This document shows positions 44,458-53,297 of a stretch of DNA of 64,000 nt, one piece after another. The notes under the pieces were generated by a model. It was given only the letters and a program-made list of their open reading frames with translations, had not been told where the DNA came from and ran no database searches. Position 1 is the first letter of the stretch, and each line of letters begins with the position of its first letter. This stretch comes from Candidatus Hadarchaeum sp. Its GTDB lineage: Archaea; Hadarchaeota; Hadarchaeia; Hadarchaeales; Hadarchaeaceae. The translations under genes and the position numbers were made by a program. The stretch spans positions 20,030 through 84,029 of the forward strand of contig NZ_JAVZIN010000004.1 of assembly GCF_038871235.1 (NCBI RefSeq), written 5' to 3'.

Positions 44458-45093
44458 ATGCGCTACAAGCTCGTGGCATTTGACATGGACGGAACCTTGA
44501 TACTAGAGGACAGTTGTTGGGGATAATTCAAAGATTTGGCACCAAGACGGCCGCACTTGGGAACTTAATGGCGTATGAGTCGGGGCAGATTGATCATGCG
44601 GAGTTCATGCGTCGCGACATAGCGCTGTGGCAGCCGACCCCCCACTTTTAATGAGATTAGGAAAATTTTGTCTCAATATACCTTGGCCCCAAACGTGAAA
44701 AATGTGGTCGGGGAAATAGTTCGCAGAGGTTTTCAGACAGCGATTATTACTGGAGGCCTTGATGTGTTAGCCGGCAATGTGGCCCGAGACCTTGGTATCC
44801 CCCACATTATCGCAAATGGTCTGGAGGTGGATAAATCCGGTTATCTGACTGGAGAGGGTATTCTCAGGGTTGAACCACGTCATAAGGATAAAAATTTGGT
44901 TAAACTGGCGAAAGATCTGGAAATTTCCCCCGAAGAACGTGTCGCGATTGGTGACGGTAAATATGACGTAAATTTCTTAAAAAGCGCTGGTCTGGCGGTT
45001 GCGGTGGGAAAGAACCCTGAGTTAGCCCGGGTGGCTGATGTCGTTATAGAGGATTTTGATCACTTTCCTCGGTTGTTAGATTACCTGGTCTGA
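44458..45093 (+). pseudogene. serB: Phosphoserine phosphatase (SerB, HAD family) split over three frames by two compensating 1-nt frameshifts at homopolymers
   Basis: MRYKLVAFDMDGTLI (HAD motif I) in frame 1 to 44524; conserved middle segment IIQRFGTKTAALGNLMAYESGQIDHAEFMRRDIALWQP in frame 0; the C-terminal part (track ORF 44668..45093, ...AIGDGKYDVNFLKSAGLAVAV) back in frame 1. The breaks sit at GGGG (44519-44522) and CCCCCC (44638-44643). Confidence 0.7.
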
Positions 45094-46397: not shown

Positions 46398-47312
46398 ATG
46401 CTGGAGCAAATTTCCACTTTCACTGATAGCCGCCTGAAAGCGAGTCGGAGGCTTATGCTGGCTTTCCTATTAACCGCTTCGGTGTTTGTAGCCGAGGTGA
46501 TTGGTGGAATTCTGAGCAACAGCCTTTCACTGATCGGTGACGCCGGGCACATGTTGGTGGACTCGGTAGCCTTAGCTGTTGGCGTGAGTGCTTTCAAGCT
46601 TGCGATGAGACCGGCAACCAAGAGAAAAACTTACGGTTATTATCGGCTGGAGATCCTAGCTGCTCTTTTTAATGGCTTATTGTTGTTTATCGTTGCGTTT
46701 TATATCTTTTCAGAGGCCTACAGAAGATTTACGACCCCCGCCGAAGTGAGGGCACCCCTGATGTTGGCAGTCGCCGTAGCTGGTTTGGCGGTAAATTTTT
46801 TATCACTAGGTATTCTTTGGAAGGTGAGAAAAGAAAATCTGAATGTGAAGGGTACCTTTTCCCACGTTTTCTCCGACACCATTTCTTCGGTTGGGGTCAT
46901 CGCCGCGGCGGTGATAATTTATTTCAGCCAATTGTTCATAGTTGATGCCTTAATAGGGATCTTGATCGGTGGAATAATACTAAGAAGTGCCGTCGCCTTG
47001 ATCAGTGAGTCAGGCCGTGTTCTTTTAGAAGCTGTCCCTGAGGGTATTGACCCCGATAGAGTGGTAGAAAAGATAAAAAAGATCGACGGTGTTCAGGATG
47101 TTCATGATTTGCATATCTGGTCGATAAGTTCAGGTATTAACTCATTGAGTGGGCATATTGTCATAGATGACCAAAAGCTGAGTAAAGCGGAGGAAATCTT
47201 AAGACAAGTAGACAAACTGCTTAAGGAAAATTTTAGCATAATCCACACAACGATTCAGCTAGAGTGCAAAGCTTGTCAGGAACCGTTTGTTTGTTCCCTC
47301 GGAGGAAAATGA
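46398..47312 (+). CDS. Cation diffusion facilitator family metal efflux transporter
   Basis: SLIGDAGHMLVDSVALAV and HDLHIWSISSG motifs, 6 TM plus a cytoplasmic domain. Confidence 0.8.
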   Translation: MLEQISTFTDSRLKASRRLMLAFLLTASVFVAEVIGGILSNSLSLIGDAGHMLVDSVALAVGVSAFKLAMRPATKRKTYGYYRLEILAALFNGLLLFIVAFYIFSEAYRRFTTPAEVRAPLMLAVAVAGLAVNFLSLGILWKVRKENLNVKGTFSHVFSDTISSVGVIAAAVIIYFSQLFIVDALIGILIGGIILRSAVALISESGRVLLEAVPEGIDPDRVVEKIKKIDGVQDVHDLHIWSISSGINSLSGHIVIDDQKLSKAEEILRQVDKLLKENFSIIHTTIQLECKACQEPFVCSLGGK

Positions 47313-47692
47313 AAAAGGTACCTATTAAACCCATTTGCATCATTTTACCAGAGTTTAGGTTGTGTATGCGGGTGTAGCTTTCAGCAGATCATCCTGAGCT
47401 ATGCAAGCGCGTGAATAACATTGAACTCATACCACTTCAGCTCCAGATTTTTGGCGTGCCTCAACAATTCCTTGCCCGCGTCTGAATGTTTTTCTAGGGC
47501 GAATCGTTGGGGATTTTCTGAAGTTACACATACAACCGCCATATCCTTCTGGATTCCGGCGGAACATCCACGTGAATAAGACACATTATGTATTGTGTGC
47601 ACACGTGTGCAGTGCTGACTTTGCCCGCTGTGGCATCTGGGCCGTGGCTCCAATCAGATCGGCCCGCTACTTACCAAAAAAGAAGGATATTT

Positions 47693-48640
47693 TCACAGCT
47701 TATTAGCTAAAGTGGCGCCGAATTTTTCCACTACTTTTTTTGCCAGCTGTGCTCCGAGGGTTCCAGATTCTTTGATGGACTTACCCCTGCTGAGACCGAA
47801 CAAGACTCCAGCCGCGTAGAAGTCACCGGCCCCTGTCGTATCCACGACATTTGCAGGTAGAGCCGGCACATGGAACTCTTCCTCCTTTGTGAATATCGAT
47901 GAACCCCTTTCTCCTTTCTTCAGACAAACGATGTCTATCTCTTTAGCCAGTTCTTTAGCGGCTTTTTCATCACTTGACCCCGTTAGTGCTTTGAGTTCTT
48001 CCTCATTCGTGAACAGCACATCGGCGCGGGTGAGTATTCTCCACAAACGATCTTTCTTTTTTTCCACCAAGGGCGGGCTCTCGAGCGAGATTGATATTCG
48101 AACTTCGTTTCCCTCGGCCACATCCATTGCGTCTCGAGCGCTTCTGGAGATGGCACCATCGGCAAAAAGAGTAATTGAAGTTAGATAAAGAAAAGCTGAA
48201 TTTTTTATTCCTGTGACCGGCAACCCGCCGTAGTCCTTGCCATTACCCAAGTCAACGGCAAAGGTTCTTTGGCCGTCCCGTGTGATAAGGGCAATTATCT
48301 TCCCGGTTCTGCCCGGTCCTTTCTCAAGAAAAGAGGCTATTTTTTGTTTTCGCAGGGATTCTTCAAAGATTTTACCCTCAGCATCTTCAGCGACTCTTCC
48401 AGCGTAGGCGGACCTACCTCCAAGATGGACTACCCCCTCACAGGTGTTGCGGGCATTATCCCCAGGAAAGCGGGCGAATATTGAGTCGGCCAGCCTTACT
48501 TGAATTTCATCAAGCCTTTCCCGCGAGACAAAATTGGATGCCCCTTTGATTAGGCCATTTTTCTCCAGAAAACTGTCCGTGGTTCTGCAGAAATGATCCA
48601 CTAGGGCGGTGCCGATTCCAAAGACATCATACTTGGGCAT
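47693..48640 (-). CDS. PfkB-family carbohydrate/nucleoside kinase
   Basis: N-terminal VFGIGTALVD and C-terminal DTTGAGDFYAAG motifs. Confidence 0.75.
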   Translation of the reverse strand: MPKYDVFGIGTALVDHFCRTTDSFLEKNGLIKGASNFVSRERLDEIQVRLADSIFARFPGDNARNTCEGVVHLGGRSAYAGRVAEDAEGKIFEESLRKQKIASFLEKGPGRTGKIIALITRDGQRTFAVDLGNGKDYGGLPVTGIKNSAFLYLTSITLFADGAISRSARDAMDVAEGNEVRISISLESPPLVEKKKDRLWRILTRADVLFTNEEELKALTGSSDEKAAKELAKEIDIVCLKKGERGSSIFTKEEEFHVPALPANVVDTTGAGDFYAAGVLFGLSRGKSIKESGTLGAQLAKKVVEKFGATLANKL

Positions 48641-48650
48641 AGTTATTACC

Positions 48651-49160
48651 TTAATATGGCCTGTCCTTCAGCTTGAGCTTATGTCCGATGAAATTCGTCG
48701 CTAGGTGTATCGGCGGCGTTATTATCAGGATGATTAAAATTATCTCCCATGAGGGCACGGATACTAGGCTGGCGAACAATAATGCCAGGACAACAAAACT
48801 GAGCTGGTCAAGGACAGGTGCGGCAGACCCTCTTTCTAAGTTAACTCTTCTTTTGATGAAGCTGCCTAGAAGATCTCCCACCAGTGCACCTAAGGCAAGC
48901 AGGAAACCAAGCGCTGAGTATAGGTGAAGCTGACCGGTGGCTAATCCCTGCAAAACACCGAGGACAAAGCCCGCGGCGAGTCCGGAAATGAAACCACGTA
49001 TTGTTTTTCCCGGTCCAAAGATGGGACGCCCATCGATGAAAGTATGCCCACCGTCGATAGGTTTCCCGCCGCCGAGGACAACCGGTGTGGCGTTGGCGAC
49101 ATAGGCCGGCAGAATAAACCAGATTGCCGCTACAATAAGTTGAATCAACTCCACGCACAC
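48651..49160 (-). CDS. carS: CDP-archaeol synthase
   Basis: 169 aa, 5 TM; pattern ...WFILPAYVANATPVVLGGGKPIDGGHTFIDGRPIFGPGKTIRGF matches CarS as I recall it. Confidence 0.7.
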   Translation of the reverse strand: MCVELIQLIVAAIWFILPAYVANATPVVLGGGKPIDGGHTFIDGRPIFGPGKTIRGFISGLAAGFVLGVLQGLATGQLHLYSALGFLLALGALVGDLLGSFIKRRVNLERGSAAPVLDQLSFVVLALLFASLVSVPSWEIILIILIITPPIHLATNFIGHKLKLKDRPY

Positions 49161-49161
49161 A

Positions 49162-49896
49162 TTAGGTCACCTTTGAGTCCTTCCAGAGGTATTCAAAATA
49201 TTCCTTGGCAAACTTGGCCAAGCCGATTTCATTCGACCATATTCCTAACAGTTCATTTCCGCTTCCTAGGATGAGCAGCACCTCTTGTCCATCCACGACG
49301 ACACCACCACCGAAGAGGTTTTCCCTTTTCCTGATTTCTAACTTTCGCGGCAGCTCCAAGCTGCGGAGATTAAGCTTCTTTGACGCCAAGATCCTGACGG
49401 GAATTTGTTTTGCTTCCAAGAGTGAGAGATAAGATTTCAGGCCGGATATCTCCTGAGGCACGTTCGGTAGCGAGAGCAGGACTTCAATCCCGGCGCGGGT
49501 AAGCATCTCTCCAATTTTGGTGAGGATATTTTTTTCACCACGAATCACCCAGACATCTGGTCGCTTTACCTCGGCTCTTCTTGAATAAAGCGGTTCAAGT
49601 TCCTTCAATAGCGCCTCTCCAGCCTCTTTGAGCCTTTTCTCCTCCTCAGTCTTCACGATTTTCACCACTTCAGCCGGATCCCTGGAGCGGTATCGGCTAG
49701 GTCTGCCAGCTTGGGCTTCTACCCATCCACGCGCCTCAAGCCTGGATAGAATGTCGTAAATTCTTGAGTAGGGGACGTTTGCCAGTTTGCTCAGTTCACC
49801 AGCGGTTGAAGGACCATTTGAAACTAAGGCACAGTAAACTCTCGCCTCATATTCGGTCAGGCCGAACTCACGCAGGAGCCGGTGAGCCTTCTCCAT
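49162..49896 (-). CDS. TrmB-family transcriptional regulator
   Basis: N-terminal wHTH LTEYEARVYCALVSNGPSTAGELSKLANVPYSRIYDILSRLEARGWV; start set at ATG 49896 (MEKAHRLL) to avoid overlapping the divergent radical SAM gene. Confidence 0.7.
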   Translation of the reverse strand: MEKAHRLLREFGLTEYEARVYCALVSNGPSTAGELSKLANVPYSRIYDILSRLEARGWVEAQAGRPSRYRSRDPAEVVKIVKTEEEKRLKEAGEALLKELEPLYSRRAEVKRPDVWVIRGEKNILTKIGEMLTRAGIEVLLSLPNVPQEISGLKSYLSLLEAKQIPVRILASKKLNLRSLELPRKLEIRKRENLFGGGVVVDGQEVLLILGSGNELLGIWSNEIGLAKFAKEYFEYLWKDSKVT

Positions 49897-49963
49897 AGCA
49901 CCACTTTTCATATTGAGAGAAGTTTGGCAATGCTTAAAAGTTACCCCTTTTAGTGGTAAATTG

Positions 49964-51565
49964 ATGGCCATGAAGGAATTGGCAAAGACCGGGTCCGTCT
50001 GCCCGCAGTGTTTGAGAATTCTTCCCGCGCAGATCATTGAGCGCGATGGAAAAGTTTGGATCAAGAAGGAATGTCCGGAGCACGGTGTTTTTGAGGACCT
50101 CTACTTTGGCTCTTATGAGTGGTATCGGCGAGCCCAGATCTTTGCCCGCGACGGCAGAGGGGTGCTGAATCCACAGGTTACCAAGGAAAACCCTGTTTGT
50201 CCTTCTGACTGTGGTTTGTGTAAGATGCACATGAGCCATACCGCTTTGGCGAACATTGTACTCACTAATCGTTGTGATCTTTCCTGCTGGTACTGCTTTT
50301 TTTATTCAGGCAGGGTGGGCTATGTTTACGAGCCCACTTTTGGTGAGATAGAAGAAATGGTTAAAACCCTGAAGTCGGAGCAACCGGTGCCGTGCAACGC
50401 AGTTCAGCTCACCGGGGGAGAGCCTTGTCTTAGGGAGGACCTAGTGGATATCATAAAGATGGTCAAGTCATATGGTGTGGATCACGTTCAGCTGAACACA
50501 AACGGCATCAGGCTGGCGTTAGACCCGGACCTCGTTGAAAAAGTTCGGGCGGCTGGTGTCAACACCCTTTATCTTAGCTTCGATGGAGTTACTGAGAAGA
50601 CTAATCCCAAGAATCACTGGGAGGTTCCCCAGCTCATAGAGAACTGTAGAAAGGTTGGCATGGGTATTGTTCTGGTGCCCACGGTGATAAAATCTGTAAA
50701 CGACCATGAAGTTGGTGACATCTTAAAGTTCGGGTTCAAGAACATTGACATCATCCGCAGCGTGAATTACCAGCCAGTTTCTCTTGTGGGCAAGATGCCA
50801 CGTGAGGAGCGCGAGCGCTACCGCATCACCATTCCTGATGTCATAAAGAATATTGAGGAGCAGACCGATGGAATTCTTAAGATGGATGATTTCTTCCCTG
50901 TTCCGACCGCGTTGATGATAAGCGATTTCGTCGAGGCCCTGACGAAAAAGCCAATGTACCAGATGAGCAGCCATTTTGCCTGCGGTGCTGCCACCTATGT
51001 TTTCAACGATAACGGCAAGATGCTGCCGCTGACTCATTTTATTGATGTCCAGGGCCTGCTTGAATACTTGGCTGAGAAGTCGGAGGAACTTCGTGCCGGA
51101 AAGAGCAAACTGCTAGTTGGGGCCAAATTGCTTTATAGCATCGGGAAGTTCGTTGATAAAAAGAAGAAACCGAAGGGTCTGGATATCGACCGCATAATAT
51201 TCAACGCGTTAATAAAACACGAGTACAACGCGATAGGTCAGTTTCACATGAAATCTCTTTTCATCGGGATGATGCACTTTATGGATCTCTATAATTACGA
51301 TATTGAGCGGGTCAAGAGATGCTGCATCCATTACGCGATGAACGACAATCGGATTATTCCCTTTTGCGCCTTCAACGTCATTCCGGAGTGGTACCGGGAC
51401 AAGAACCAGGCGGCGCAGGGTATCTCGTTTGAGGAGTGGGAGAGAAAGACAGGAAGACCGCTGAAACAGGACCTTTATAAGCGCGATGCGGAAAAATTAA
51501 AGGCATCTGAGGCTTACAAGAAGTTTGTTTGGCAGGTGGAGGAGATAAAGTCCGGCAAGTTTTGA
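49964..51565 (+). CDS. Radical SAM protein with N-terminal zinc-ribbon/rubredoxin-like CxxC...CPEHG motif; candidate tetraether lipid synthase (Tes/GDGT-MAS-like) family
   Basis: CxxxCxxC at NRCDLSCWYCFF, N-terminal VCPQC...ECPEHG, Cys-rich C-terminus (CGAATY, CCIHY, FCAF); about 530 aa. Family call is from recalled domain architecture and the adjacent carS, not an alignment. Confidence 0.5.
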   Translation: MAMKELAKTGSVCPQCLRILPAQIIERDGKVWIKKECPEHGVFEDLYFGSYEWYRRAQIFARDGRGVLNPQVTKENPVCPSDCGLCKMHMSHTALANIVLTNRCDLSCWYCFFYSGRVGYVYEPTFGEIEEMVKTLKSEQPVPCNAVQLTGGEPCLREDLVDIIKMVKSYGVDHVQLNTNGIRLALDPDLVEKVRAAGVNTLYLSFDGVTEKTNPKNHWEVPQLIENCRKVGMGIVLVPTVIKSVNDHEVGDILKFGFKNIDIIRSVNYQPVSLVGKMPREERERYRITIPDVIKNIEEQTDGILKMDDFFPVPTALMISDFVEALTKKPMYQMSSHFACGAATYVFNDNGKMLPLTHFIDVQGLLEYLAEKSEELRAGKSKLLVGAKLLYSIGKFVDKKKKPKGLDIDRIIFNALIKHEYNAIGQFHMKSLFIGMMHFMDLYNYDIERVKRCCIHYAMNDNRIIPFCAFNVIPEWYRDKNQAAQGISFEEWERKTGRPLKQDLYKRDAEKLKASEAYKKFVWQVEEIKSGKF

Positions 51566-51638
51566 AAGGGCAAGGTTTTTATATTCTAAAATTTTCTCAT
51601 TATAGTAGCGTAATTGAATAATTAATGGGAGGGATTTT

Positions 51639-53297
51639 ATGGCGAGTCAGTTAGGAGGACAACCAATACTCATTCTGCCGGAAAAAGTTCAGCGGTACCT
51701 GGGCCGAGATGCCCAGCGTATGAACATAATGGCCGCGAGGGTCATAGCGGAGTCGGTCCGCACGACCTTGGGCCCACGCGGAATGGATAAGATGTTGGTT
51801 GATAACTTGGGTGACGTCACCATAACTAACGACGGCGTCACCATTCTTGAGGAAATGGATGTTGAGCACCCGGCCGCAAAGATGATGGTCGAGGTCTCAA
51901 AGGCACAAGAGGACGAGGTCGGAGATGGCACCACAACAGCGGTGGTGTTGGCCGGAGAGCTGTTGAAGAAGTCGGAGGAGCTACTTGAGCAGGATATCCA
52001 TCCGACGGTCATCGTCAGCGGCTACAGGCTGGCAGCCGAGCAGGCTCAGAAGATCCTGGAGAAGATGGCAACTCCTGTCTCCAAGGATGACGACAAGATT
52101 CTCAAGCAGATTGCCAAGACATCAATGAGCAGCAAGGGCTCGGAAATGCACGGCGATAAGCTGGCCGAACTCTGCGTGAAAGCAGTCAAACAGATAGTTG
52201 AGGAAGTCGACGGCAAAATTGAGGCGGACATCGATAACATCAAGGTTGAGAAGAAAACTGGGGGCAGCTCTGCCGACACTCAGCTGATCAAAGGAATAGT
52301 TCTCGACAAAGAGGTGGTTCACCCCGGCATGCCGAAGAGGGTGGAAAATGCCAAGATCGCTCTGCTGAACCTTGCTCTAGAAGTCAAAAAGACCGAGACG
52401 GATGCCAAGATTAACATTACTGACCCTGAGCAGCTCAAAAAGTTTATCGATGAGGAACAGCGCATGCTGAAGGAGATGGTTGACCAGATAAAGAGCGTCG
52501 GCGCCAACGTTGTCTTCTGCCAGAAGGGTATCGACGATGTGGCCCAGCACTACTTGGCTAAGGCCGGAATCTTGGCGGCTCGAAGGGTGAAGGAGTCCGA
52601 TATGGAGAAGCTAGCCCGCGCCACCGGGGGCAACTGTGTGACTAACATCAAGGATCTCACCGTCAAGGACTTGGGCACAGCGGAGCTGGTGGAGGAGAGA
52701 AAGATTGCAGGTGATGAGATGATTTTTGTTGAGGGCTGTAAGGATCCGAGATCAGTGAGCATTCTGGTTAGGGGTGGCACCGAGCACGTCGTCGATGAGG
52801 TCGAGCGGGCAGTACATGACGCGGTTTCAGTGGTTTCAGCGGCCATTGAGGACGGAAAGATAGTCGGTGGTGGCGGAGCCCCCGAGATAGAGGTGGCCAA
52901 AGGACTTAGGGAGTATTCCGATTCCGTTGGCGGCCGCGAGGCTCTTGCGGTAAATGCTTTTGCCGATGCGATCGAGGTGATCCCAAGGACTTTGGCTGAA
53001 AACGCAGGGATGGATCCCATCGACATCTTGGTGCAACTTAGGGCAGCCCATGAGAAGAGCGATGGAAAGAATGTGGGTGTTGATGTCATCAGCGGCAAGG
53101 TCTTGAACACTCTCGAGAAGGGGATAGTGGAACCACTAAGGGTCAAGATCCAGGCAATCAAATCCGCAACTGAAGTCACCGAGATGATCCTTAGAATAGA
53201 CGACGTTATCGCCGCAGGAAAGCTGGAAAAAGAAGAGAAAGAAAAAGAGAAAGAGAAGGGAGCTGGCCCTGAGATGGGTGGCATGCCAGAGATGTAG
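51639..53297 (+). CDS. ths: Thermosome subunit (group II chaperonin)
   Basis: [28 protein letters not shown]-terminal GGMPEM tail; ribosome-binding site GGGAGGG before ATG 51639. Confidence 0.9.

Follow-up and report, generated by a model that had tools for sequence, protein, structure and literature searches.

Within a 64,000-nucleotide (nt) stretch of contig NZ_JAVZIN010000004.1 of Candidatus Hadarchaeum sp. (hereafter the window, with positions counted from its first letter) lies a divergent lipid-biosynthesis module, in which tes, the gene of a predicted tetraether lipid synthase, occupies the (+) strand and an operon encoding a TrmB-family regulator, the CDP-archaeol synthase CarS and a PfkB-family kinase occupies the (-) strand. 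tes (49964-51565, (+)) encodes a radical S-adenosylmethionine (SAM) protein of 533 amino acids, the regulator gene (49162-49896, (-)) a protein of 244 amino acids, and these are accompanied by carS (48651-49160, (-)) and, as the last gene of the operon, pfkB (47693-48640, (-)). The three (-) genes are taken to form a tight operon, since 1 nt separates the stop of the trmB-like gene from the start of carS and 10 nt separate the stop of carS from the start of pfkB, while a spacer of 67 nt (49897-49963) separates the regulator gene from tes. These four open reading frames (ORFs), the 1-nt gap and the 67-nt divergent region are all found where an initial annotation, made from the sequence without database searches, had placed them. 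An identical contig with matching gene calls is contained in the public assembly Logan SRR27170999, and the names of close homologs agree with a placement in Hadarchaeota (Ca. Hadarchaeum). Individually the gene products are ordinary members of known families, and the value of the locus resides in a conserved gene pairing and in the cis-elements associated with it: the association that is robust across phyla is that of the TrmB-like gene with tes, not that of carS with tes.

Protein families encoded at the locus

The radical SAM protein reaches 727.6 bits on the NCBIfam model NF045702, 'tetraether lipid synthase Tes', whose equivalog cut-off is 450, and matches the radical SAM domain PF04055 at 99.8 bits. 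Its residues 6-48 match the N-terminal Zn-ribbon PF23545 (73.2 bits, cut-off 27), residues 8-495 align to the solved Methanocaldococcus jannaschii glycerol dialkyl glycerol tetraether (GDGT)-MAS structure 7TOL_A at 464 bits, and the global identity to MJ0619 amounts to 46%. Fourteen of the 15 cysteines of MJ0619 are kept, with C438 replaced by Met; the CX3CX2C cysteines C104, C108 and C111 correspond in the alignment to C98, C102 and C105 of MJ0619, the N-terminal C13, C16 and C37 (CxxC...CPEHG) are likewise conserved, and C340, C453, C454 and C468 are present in the C-terminal part; the conserved cysteines outside the CX3CX2C motif and the Zn-ribbon are candidate ligands of auxiliary clusters. 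The domain order, Zn-ribbon PF23545, CX3CX2C radical SAM core and Cys-bearing C-terminal part, is the same as in the characterized GDGT-MAS/Tes proteins (MJ0619, PDB 7TOL/7TOM; MA_1486; Saci_0703), and no structural difference from them is seen. The protein is thus by its sequence a canonical tetraether synthase Tes, predicted to couple archaeal diether lipids tail-to-tail through a C-C bond. Judged by sequence, its product may be either GDGT or macrocyclic archaeol; the homolog MA_1114 gave only trace macrocyclic archaeol (PMC8941075). The initial annotation had correctly assigned the protein to the Tes/GDGT-MAS family and had recognized its N-terminal motif and C-terminal cysteines, but its description as 'divergent' does not hold in view of the score and the near full-length alignment to 7TOL. 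The rubredoxin-like N-terminus that it had singled out exists as a domain, and is nothing unusual, PF23545 being a standard hallmark of the Tes family. A better match to a methanopterin-pathway methylase, proposed there as a refutation of the Tes assignment, is a moot point, as MJ0619 itself carried the methylase name in earlier annotation (UniRef name); a pterin methylase identity was therefore rejected, with the Tes cut-off passed.

CarS and the TrmB-family regulator, as named in the initial annotation, are both recovered by Pfam and NCBIfam. CarS scores 207.2 bits on the equivalog NF003114 (cut-off 148) and 187.5 bits on PF01864, covering profile positions 1-175 of 175. The kinase matches PF00294 at 145.7 bits; although labelled a PfkB sugar kinase, the product of 47693-48640 is closest to adenosine kinases, with 3UBO as its best solved match (145.9 bits, full length).

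The regulator contains the TrmB winged helix-turn-helix (HTH) domain PF01978 at 86.4 bits (cut-off 25.6), and the effector domain PF11495 is matched in its N-terminal half only (profile positions 2-134 of 233, 24.9 bits). It stays below all equivalog cut-offs, with 73.7 versus 600 for TrmB (NF040851), 71.3 versus 650 for TrmBL1 (NF047390) and 68.3 versus 530 for TrmBL2 (NF041141), and its length contrasts with the 338-341 amino acids of the sugar-sensing TrmB/TrmBL1 proteins. An AlphaFold2 model (mean predicted local distance difference test score of 84.5) consists of a winged HTH, a long helix and a C-terminal fold resembling phospholipase D (PLD). The best Foldseek hits are the TrmBL2 structures 5BQT, 5BOX and 5BPD (E ~1e-19), with 5BQT the nearest (E 8.5e-20, ~30% identity). 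Like TrmBL2 (TK0471/PF0496), which has 264 amino acids, the regulator combines a winged HTH bearing a Tyr-Asp pair with a long coiled-coil helix (PMC4158304), and in both proteins the effector domain is truncated and devoid of the sugar-binding barrel; they differ in that identity is only ~30% and far under the TrmBL2 equivalog cut-off. In an alignment of 24 homologs Y47 is invariant and is followed in the window protein by D48, the two residues aligning to Y50-D51 of TrmBL2 and to the DNA-reading Tyr-Asp of TrmB (PMC4158304). The C-terminal domain has a fold like that of Nuc, Zucchini, PLD and PssA (E ~1e-7). The catalytic motif HxK(x)4D was not found in this domain, and the same alignment contains no conserved His or Lys there, the invariant residues being E138, F195, G196, G198, D202, I219, S221, A230, Y233 and F234. 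TrmB, TrmBL1 (Tgr) and VNG1451C share the DNA-binding domain with the window regulator, which differs from them by the lack of a C-terminal sugar-binding subdomain and by its linkage to a lipid enzyme gene instead of genes of sugar transport or glycolysis. By sequence criteria the regulator represents a distinct TrmB subfamily with a TrmBL2-like architecture and without a sugar-binding subdomain. This subfamily is real and moderately large: a profile search gave 227 cluster representatives at E<=1e-30, of which nearly all full-length ones have ~230-285 amino acids.

Pairing of the regulator gene with tes

Conservation of the arrangement was surveyed in the 80 best loci of at least 578 regulator relatives, with one genome per species, covering Hadarchaeota, Bathyarchaeia, Nitrososphaerales, Caldarchaeales, Baldrarchaeota and a few others; ORFs in these loci were obtained by simple longest-ORF calling and trees by quick neighbour-joining. 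A Tes homolog lies within 10 kb of the regulator ortholog in 59 of the 80 loci (tblastn), and in 41 of the 80 tes is divergently adjacent, typically across a gap of 60-130 nt. When the 1222 ORFs of the surveyed loci were clustered, tes was the sole widely shared neighbour, represented by complete ORFs in 52 loci against 14 loci for the cluster that ranked second. All ten sampled partner proteins pass the Tes cut-off with 573-739 bits and are 38-66% identical to the window Tes. In the neighbour-joining tree the divergent pair is scattered over the whole regulator family, and is missing in some subclades, namely a soil Bathyarchaeia clade, some Nitrososphaerales and Baldrarchaeota. It is also present, with a gap of 166 nt, in the complete genome of Ca. 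Nitrososphaera evergladensis.

A rough Tes tree contains two deep clades, and the regulator is paired with members of both: MJ0619 and the other euryarchaeal references belong to one, the window Tes together with Nitrososphaerales and many Bathyarchaeia to the other. Within Hadarchaeota, three distinct Tes lineages occupy one and the same syntenic slot, in which FEN1 and thermosome genes precede the divergent tes-regulator pair (L007 and L012 versus L003, L002 and the window; also L008, L011, L013 and L015). One of these three lineages clusters with euryarchaeal Tes such as MJ0619, and the neighbouring regulators stay closely related. This pattern looks like in-situ replacement of tes, and, because different Tes lineages share the slot beside closely related regulators, it argues for selection on the regulator/tes pair rather than for frozen synteny.

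Among orthologs without a nearby tes no consistent alternative partner was found, the neighbours including RtcA, Mrp/NUBPL, HypF, Ldh_2 and myo-inositol-1-phosphate synthase. In six loci of the soil Bathyarchaeia clade (L039, L042, L050, L052, L056, L066) a gene for an Mrp/NUBPL-type Fe-S carrier is divergently adjacent to the regulator, and the palindrome A described below is missing. In two Nitrososphaerales loci (L053:10801-11874 and L070:10179-11258) a gene for myo-inositol-1-phosphate synthase, which provides a lipid head-group precursor, is convergent with the regulator and directly downstream of it; in these two regulators Pro-Val-Ser replaces Pro-Tyr-Ser in the recognition helix. No TrmB-like neighbour of tes was found in six euryarchaeal loci (M. 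jannaschii, Methanohalobium, Methanothermus fervidus, Methanoperedens, Hydrothermarchaeota and Methanofastidiosum), so that the observed cases of the pairing come from Hadarchaeota and Thermoproteota, with no euryarchaeal example among the six loci sampled. Among the latter, a small ArsR/HTH_5-type regulator that is not TrmB-like is divergently adjacent to tes in Methanohalobium evestigatum (L083:3419-3775), and the Methanoperedens contig has another radical SAM gene, which is shorter than tes (345 amino acids) and starts 11 nt after it (L085:5500-6537).

Linkage of carS to tes is recurrent but labile. The regulator-carS operon was found in Hadarchaeota only, where the block FEN1-thermosome-tes-trmB-carS is syntenic, and pfkB after carS is restricted to a few close Hadarchaeum relatives. 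A CarS-centred scan of metagenome contigs yielded 80 loci, of which 13 have tes within 6 kb; all 13 CarS proteins are Hadarchaeota-like, with 65-69% identity to the window CarS, and the regulator lies between the two genes in seven loci and is absent from the other six, in which carS and tes are directly divergent. Locus L089 (CarS 79% identical) has carS-pfkB with neither tes nor the regulator in the 6 kb upstream. An independent CarS/Tes linkage is given by a Methanothermus fervidus-type contig (L084:3411-6452), in which carS is directly divergent from tes, a GHMP-family kinase gene follows tes and no TrmB-like gene is present. The physical linkage of carS and tes, to which the initial annotation had drawn attention, thus exists here and recurs, while the part of it that is conserved is the TrmB-like/tes pair. 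Clustering of tes with an ether-lipid gene is also known from Methanosarcina acetivorans MA_1486-1485-1484, encoding Tes, ferredoxin and geranylgeranyl reductase (GGR) (PMC8941075); no regulator gene has been described for that cluster, whereas the neighbours in the window are a TrmB-like regulator and carS. In one Bathyarchaeia lineage (L026:11162-14924 and the related L019-L035) tes forms an operon with genes for GGR and a DUF3788 protein, and a 4HBT thioesterase gene is divergent from tes.

These distributions bear on the idea that the regulator is an ordinary sugar- or nucleoside-responsive TrmB protein controlling its own operon, notably pfkB, and that the proximity of its gene to tes and carS is a matter of inherited synteny with no bearing on regulation. 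Such an idea draws on the family being best known for sugar regulons, with members often located beside their targets (PMC4158304), on the kinase gene sharing the operon and on the syntenic block of Hadarchaeota. It is nevertheless very improbable: the protein has no C-terminal sugar-binding subdomain and lies far under the TrmB and TrmBL1 cut-offs, the kinase is adenosine-kinase-like, and pfkB linkage is confined to few close relatives, in contrast to the adjacency of tes, which spans phyla and outlasts replacement of the Tes type.

Elements of the divergent promoter region

Three elements occupy the 67-nt spacer. Element B (49900-49927) reads ACCACTTTTC-atattga-GAGAAGTTTGG, with a core of ACTTTTC-N7-GAGAAGT that corresponds to the family core ACTTTTC-N7-GARAAGT; it is located upstream of the presumed tes TATA box, overlaps the 5' end of the trmB-like transcription unit and comes within 4 nt of the regulator ATG. 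The TATA-like box cttaaaag (49933-49940), to which a TATA function is ascribed from its sequence, is the single such box of the spacer and is roughly equidistant from both genes, and its TTTAA core is invariant in eight Hadarchaeum-type loci. Palindrome A (49941-49959) reads TTACCCCT-TTT-AGTGGTAA, the family consensus being TTACCACT-N3-AGTGGTAA (ACCACT-N3-AGTGGT), and is located between the TATA-like box and the tes ATG at 49964. The initial annotation had already pointed out the TATA-like sequence, placing it one base off at 49934-49941, and had proposed that TrmB-type palindromes be sought in 49897-49963, where palindrome A and element B were indeed found. A generic inverted-repeat finder failed to detect these imperfect palindromes, and an E-value search of 47000-52500 returned no Rfam family match.

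One gene caller had chosen an in-frame ATG at 49911, inside element B, as the regulator start. This ATG is out of frame in four orthologous loci (L002, L006, L008 and L012) and missing in L007, for which reason that start was rejected and 49896 is taken as the regulator start. The same loss of frame rules out that ATATGAAAAGTGG is conserved as coding sequence, and element B is thus regarded as a DNA element and not as coding conservation.

Palindrome A is present in 46 orthologous loci with at most 3 of 12 positions mismatched, and its A, C, C, G and G positions are invariant in all 46. In a scan of 1.22 Mb of surveyed loci, matches with at most one mismatch number 23 in the 16.5 kb of regulator-upstream sequence (205 nt each) and 3 in the other 1.2 Mb, close to chance. 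Within the 64-kb window, palindrome A is the best match (1 mismatch) and element B the only zero-mismatch match, and further A or B sites that could hint at a regulon amount to chance-level 2-mismatch hits only. Element B is conserved in the intergenic regions of Hadarchaeota and Bathyarchaeia, with a partial copy upstream of the tes TATA box in Nitrososphaera evergladensis. The layout B-TATA-A-ATG aligns among Hadarchaeota, Bathyarchaeia with the divergent pair and Bathyarchaeia in which tes stands apart from the regulator; the Bathyarchaeia spacers are ~100 nt long and contain two TATA-like boxes.

Loci in which the genes have come apart show what each element follows. In the separated Bathyarchaeia lineage the tes-GGR-DUF3788 operon lies 2-5 kb downstream of the regulator and is convergent with it; the region upstream of tes has element B, a TATA box and an A-like GGTGGT right before the ATG, and the regulator retains its own palindrome A directly upstream of its TATA box. 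Two metagenomic loci with regulator-carS and no tes (L157 and L161) keep palindrome A upstream of the regulator. On regulator-less tes/carS contigs both elements are eroded in five of six cases (L112, L135, L146, L166 and L168), and both are absent from the tes promoters of the six euryarchaeal loci named above, which have no regulator. As judged from these sequences, palindrome A accompanies both the regulator and tes, and element B is a tes-promoter element. In four loci (L008, L009, L011 and L013) Pro-His-Ser stands for Pro-Tyr-Ser at the start of the recognition helix and ACTACT for ACCACT in the left arm of palindrome A; protein-DNA covariation between the recognition helix and palindrome A is a weak hint, the four loci being one clade and L015 breaking the rule.

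The behaviour of these elements is also relevant to the alternative that the regulator is a TrmBL2-type chromatin protein or global repressor of low specificity, with the palindromes read by another, unlinked factor or being simply the tes core promoter. TrmBL2 is the closest relative in structure and architecture, element B remains at tes in loci where the regulator lies elsewhere, and one locus, L105, retains palindrome A without an adjacent regulator, all of which would agree with such a role. Against it stand the score of 68.3 against the TrmBL2 cut-off of 530 and the fact that a chromatin protein would have no reason for divergent pairing with one enzyme gene across phyla. Furthermore, palindrome A has TrmB-operator geometry and remains with the regulator gene after tes has moved, and A and B are not generic promoter elements, given the absence of any other good match in 64 kb and chance-level occurrence in 1.2 Mb. 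TrmBL2 binds coding and intergenic DNA broadly, in contrast to the window family, which is tied to tes and to specific palindromes; such conserved palindromes beside the regulator gene argue, at the level of sequence, against a chromatin-like, sequence-nonspecific mode of binding, and this alternative is considered quite unlikely.

Proposed regulation of tes

The sequences show the gene identities, the conserved pairing and the conserved, position-specific cis-elements; what binds these elements, the sign of regulation, the leaderless transcription starts and the effector are inferred. Taken as a whole, the locus is likely to be best explained by the TrmB-like regulator being a dedicated, autoregulated transcription factor of tes that would act via palindrome A. 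TrmB-family operators are palindromic (TACT-N3-AGTA, TATCAC-N5-GTGATA, TACT-N7-8-GAGTA), and sites of this family repress when located downstream of the transcription factor B recognition element (BRE)/TATA over the start site and activate when located upstream, with autoregulation being known (PMC4158304). By analogy with TrmB, TrmBL1 (Tgr) and VNG1451C, palindromic operators, the same logic of position relative to the TATA box and autoregulation may apply here. A regulator dimer would bind palindrome A, whose CACT-N3-AGTG shares its half-site geometry with the TrmB operator TACT-N3-AGTA, and at this position, between TATA and the tes ATG, a TrmB-family protein would block the recruitment of RNA polymerase. 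If transcription begins ~25 nt from the TATA box, as is usual, the tes transcript would have no leader and its start site would be covered by palindrome A; leaderless starts are predicted near 49964 on the (+) strand and at ~49909-49912 on the (-) strand. Since palindrome A fills the TATA-to-ATG interval and covers the start site, repression of tes is the most likely role, and by this analogy the regulator is probably a repressor of tes that acts at the transcription start. Occupancy of A should also limit the regulator's own operon, because A directly adjoins the TATA box that serves the other strand. In the Hadarchaeum lineage the shared site would couple carS to tes, and coordinated control of both genes is plausible there, given the shared 67-nt promoter region. 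Element B makes up another component of the tes promoter, upstream of its TATA box, to which either the regulator or a different protein may bind. The C-terminal domain, a catalytically dead PLD fold, presumably senses an effector by which binding would be either relieved or strengthened.

Placement of the elements also allows a different sign, namely that the regulator activates tes, or that it is a two-way switch which, from a single shared TATA box, directs expression to tes or to the carS operon depending on the element occupied. Element B is located upstream of the tes TATA box, in the activating position of TrmBL1, Tgr and VNG1451C, each of the two candidate start points lies ~26-27 nt from the one TATA-like box, and in the separated Bathyarchaeia A lies upstream of the regulator's own TATA box. 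We regard activation or switching as unlikely: site A fills the whole interval from the TATA box to the tes ATG, a placement classically linked to repression, B is only a putative site for the regulator, and the two TATA-like boxes of the ~100-nt Bathyarchaeia spacers indicate that a one-TATA design is not general.

A more specific reading, tentative and rather unlikely, is that of a lipid-sensing factor, a phospholipid-type ligand being an idea prompted by the PLD-like fold. The dead PLD-fold domain would bind an archaeal phospholipid intermediate (CDP-archaeol, for instance, or a saturated diether phospholipid) and set the expression of tes, and in Hadarchaeota also that of carS, via palindrome A. 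If true, such a regulator would be a feedback controller of the diether:tetraether ratio, conserved in Bathyarchaeia and Nitrososphaera.

Several points weigh against a dedicated tes regulator that acts through palindrome A. The survey drew on the best 80 loci only, and 21 of these 80 orthologs are without tes within 10 kb and have varied neighbours. The enrichment figures for palindrome A are not independent tests, because the motifs were defined on the loci counted and the loci are phylogenetically related. Locus L105, which has no regulator between tes and carS, retains an intact palindrome A. Element B follows tes instead of the regulator, so that it may be the site of another factor. Finally, TrmBL2, the nearest solved relative, is a largely sequence-nonspecific chromatin protein (PMC4158304).

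Both membrane adaptation and the temperature proxies taken from sediments rest on the abundance of GDGTs, and Nitrososphaera are soil ammonia oxidisers whose GDGTs feed palaeoclimate proxies. The pair described here, carried by the enriched ammonia oxidiser Ca. Nitrososphaera evergladensis and by abundant uncultured Bathyarchaeia and Hadarchaeota, would provide a first concrete candidate regulator and DNA site for the switching of tetraether lipid synthesis, and, if the proposal is true, would add the control of membrane lipids to the role of the TrmB family in sugar metabolism. The paper that reported Tes took the neighbouring ferredoxin and GGR genes of M. acetivorans as a clue, and states that the way in which GDGT formation is regulated is not understood (PMC8941075). 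In a review of the TrmB family the word 'lipid' does not occur (PMC4158304), and in a review of archaeal phospholipid biosynthesis the word 'transcriptional' does not occur and passages on synteny concern GGR and ferredoxin only (PMC9385802). No paper linking TrmB with Tes or GDGT was found in the full-text literature searched, with subscription-only literature outside the search, and, as the initial annotation supposed, nothing in the searchable literature describes the arrangement. The TrmB-like/tes pairing with its position-specific predicted operators is conserved and apparently undescribed.

Elsewhere in the window, an ORF on the (+) strand at 44668-45093 encodes a HAD/SerB-like protein of 141 amino acids; it has a TTG start, may be truncated or have a mis-called start, and covers only a C-terminal portion of the phosphoserine phosphatase profile, at positions 84-210 of 219.

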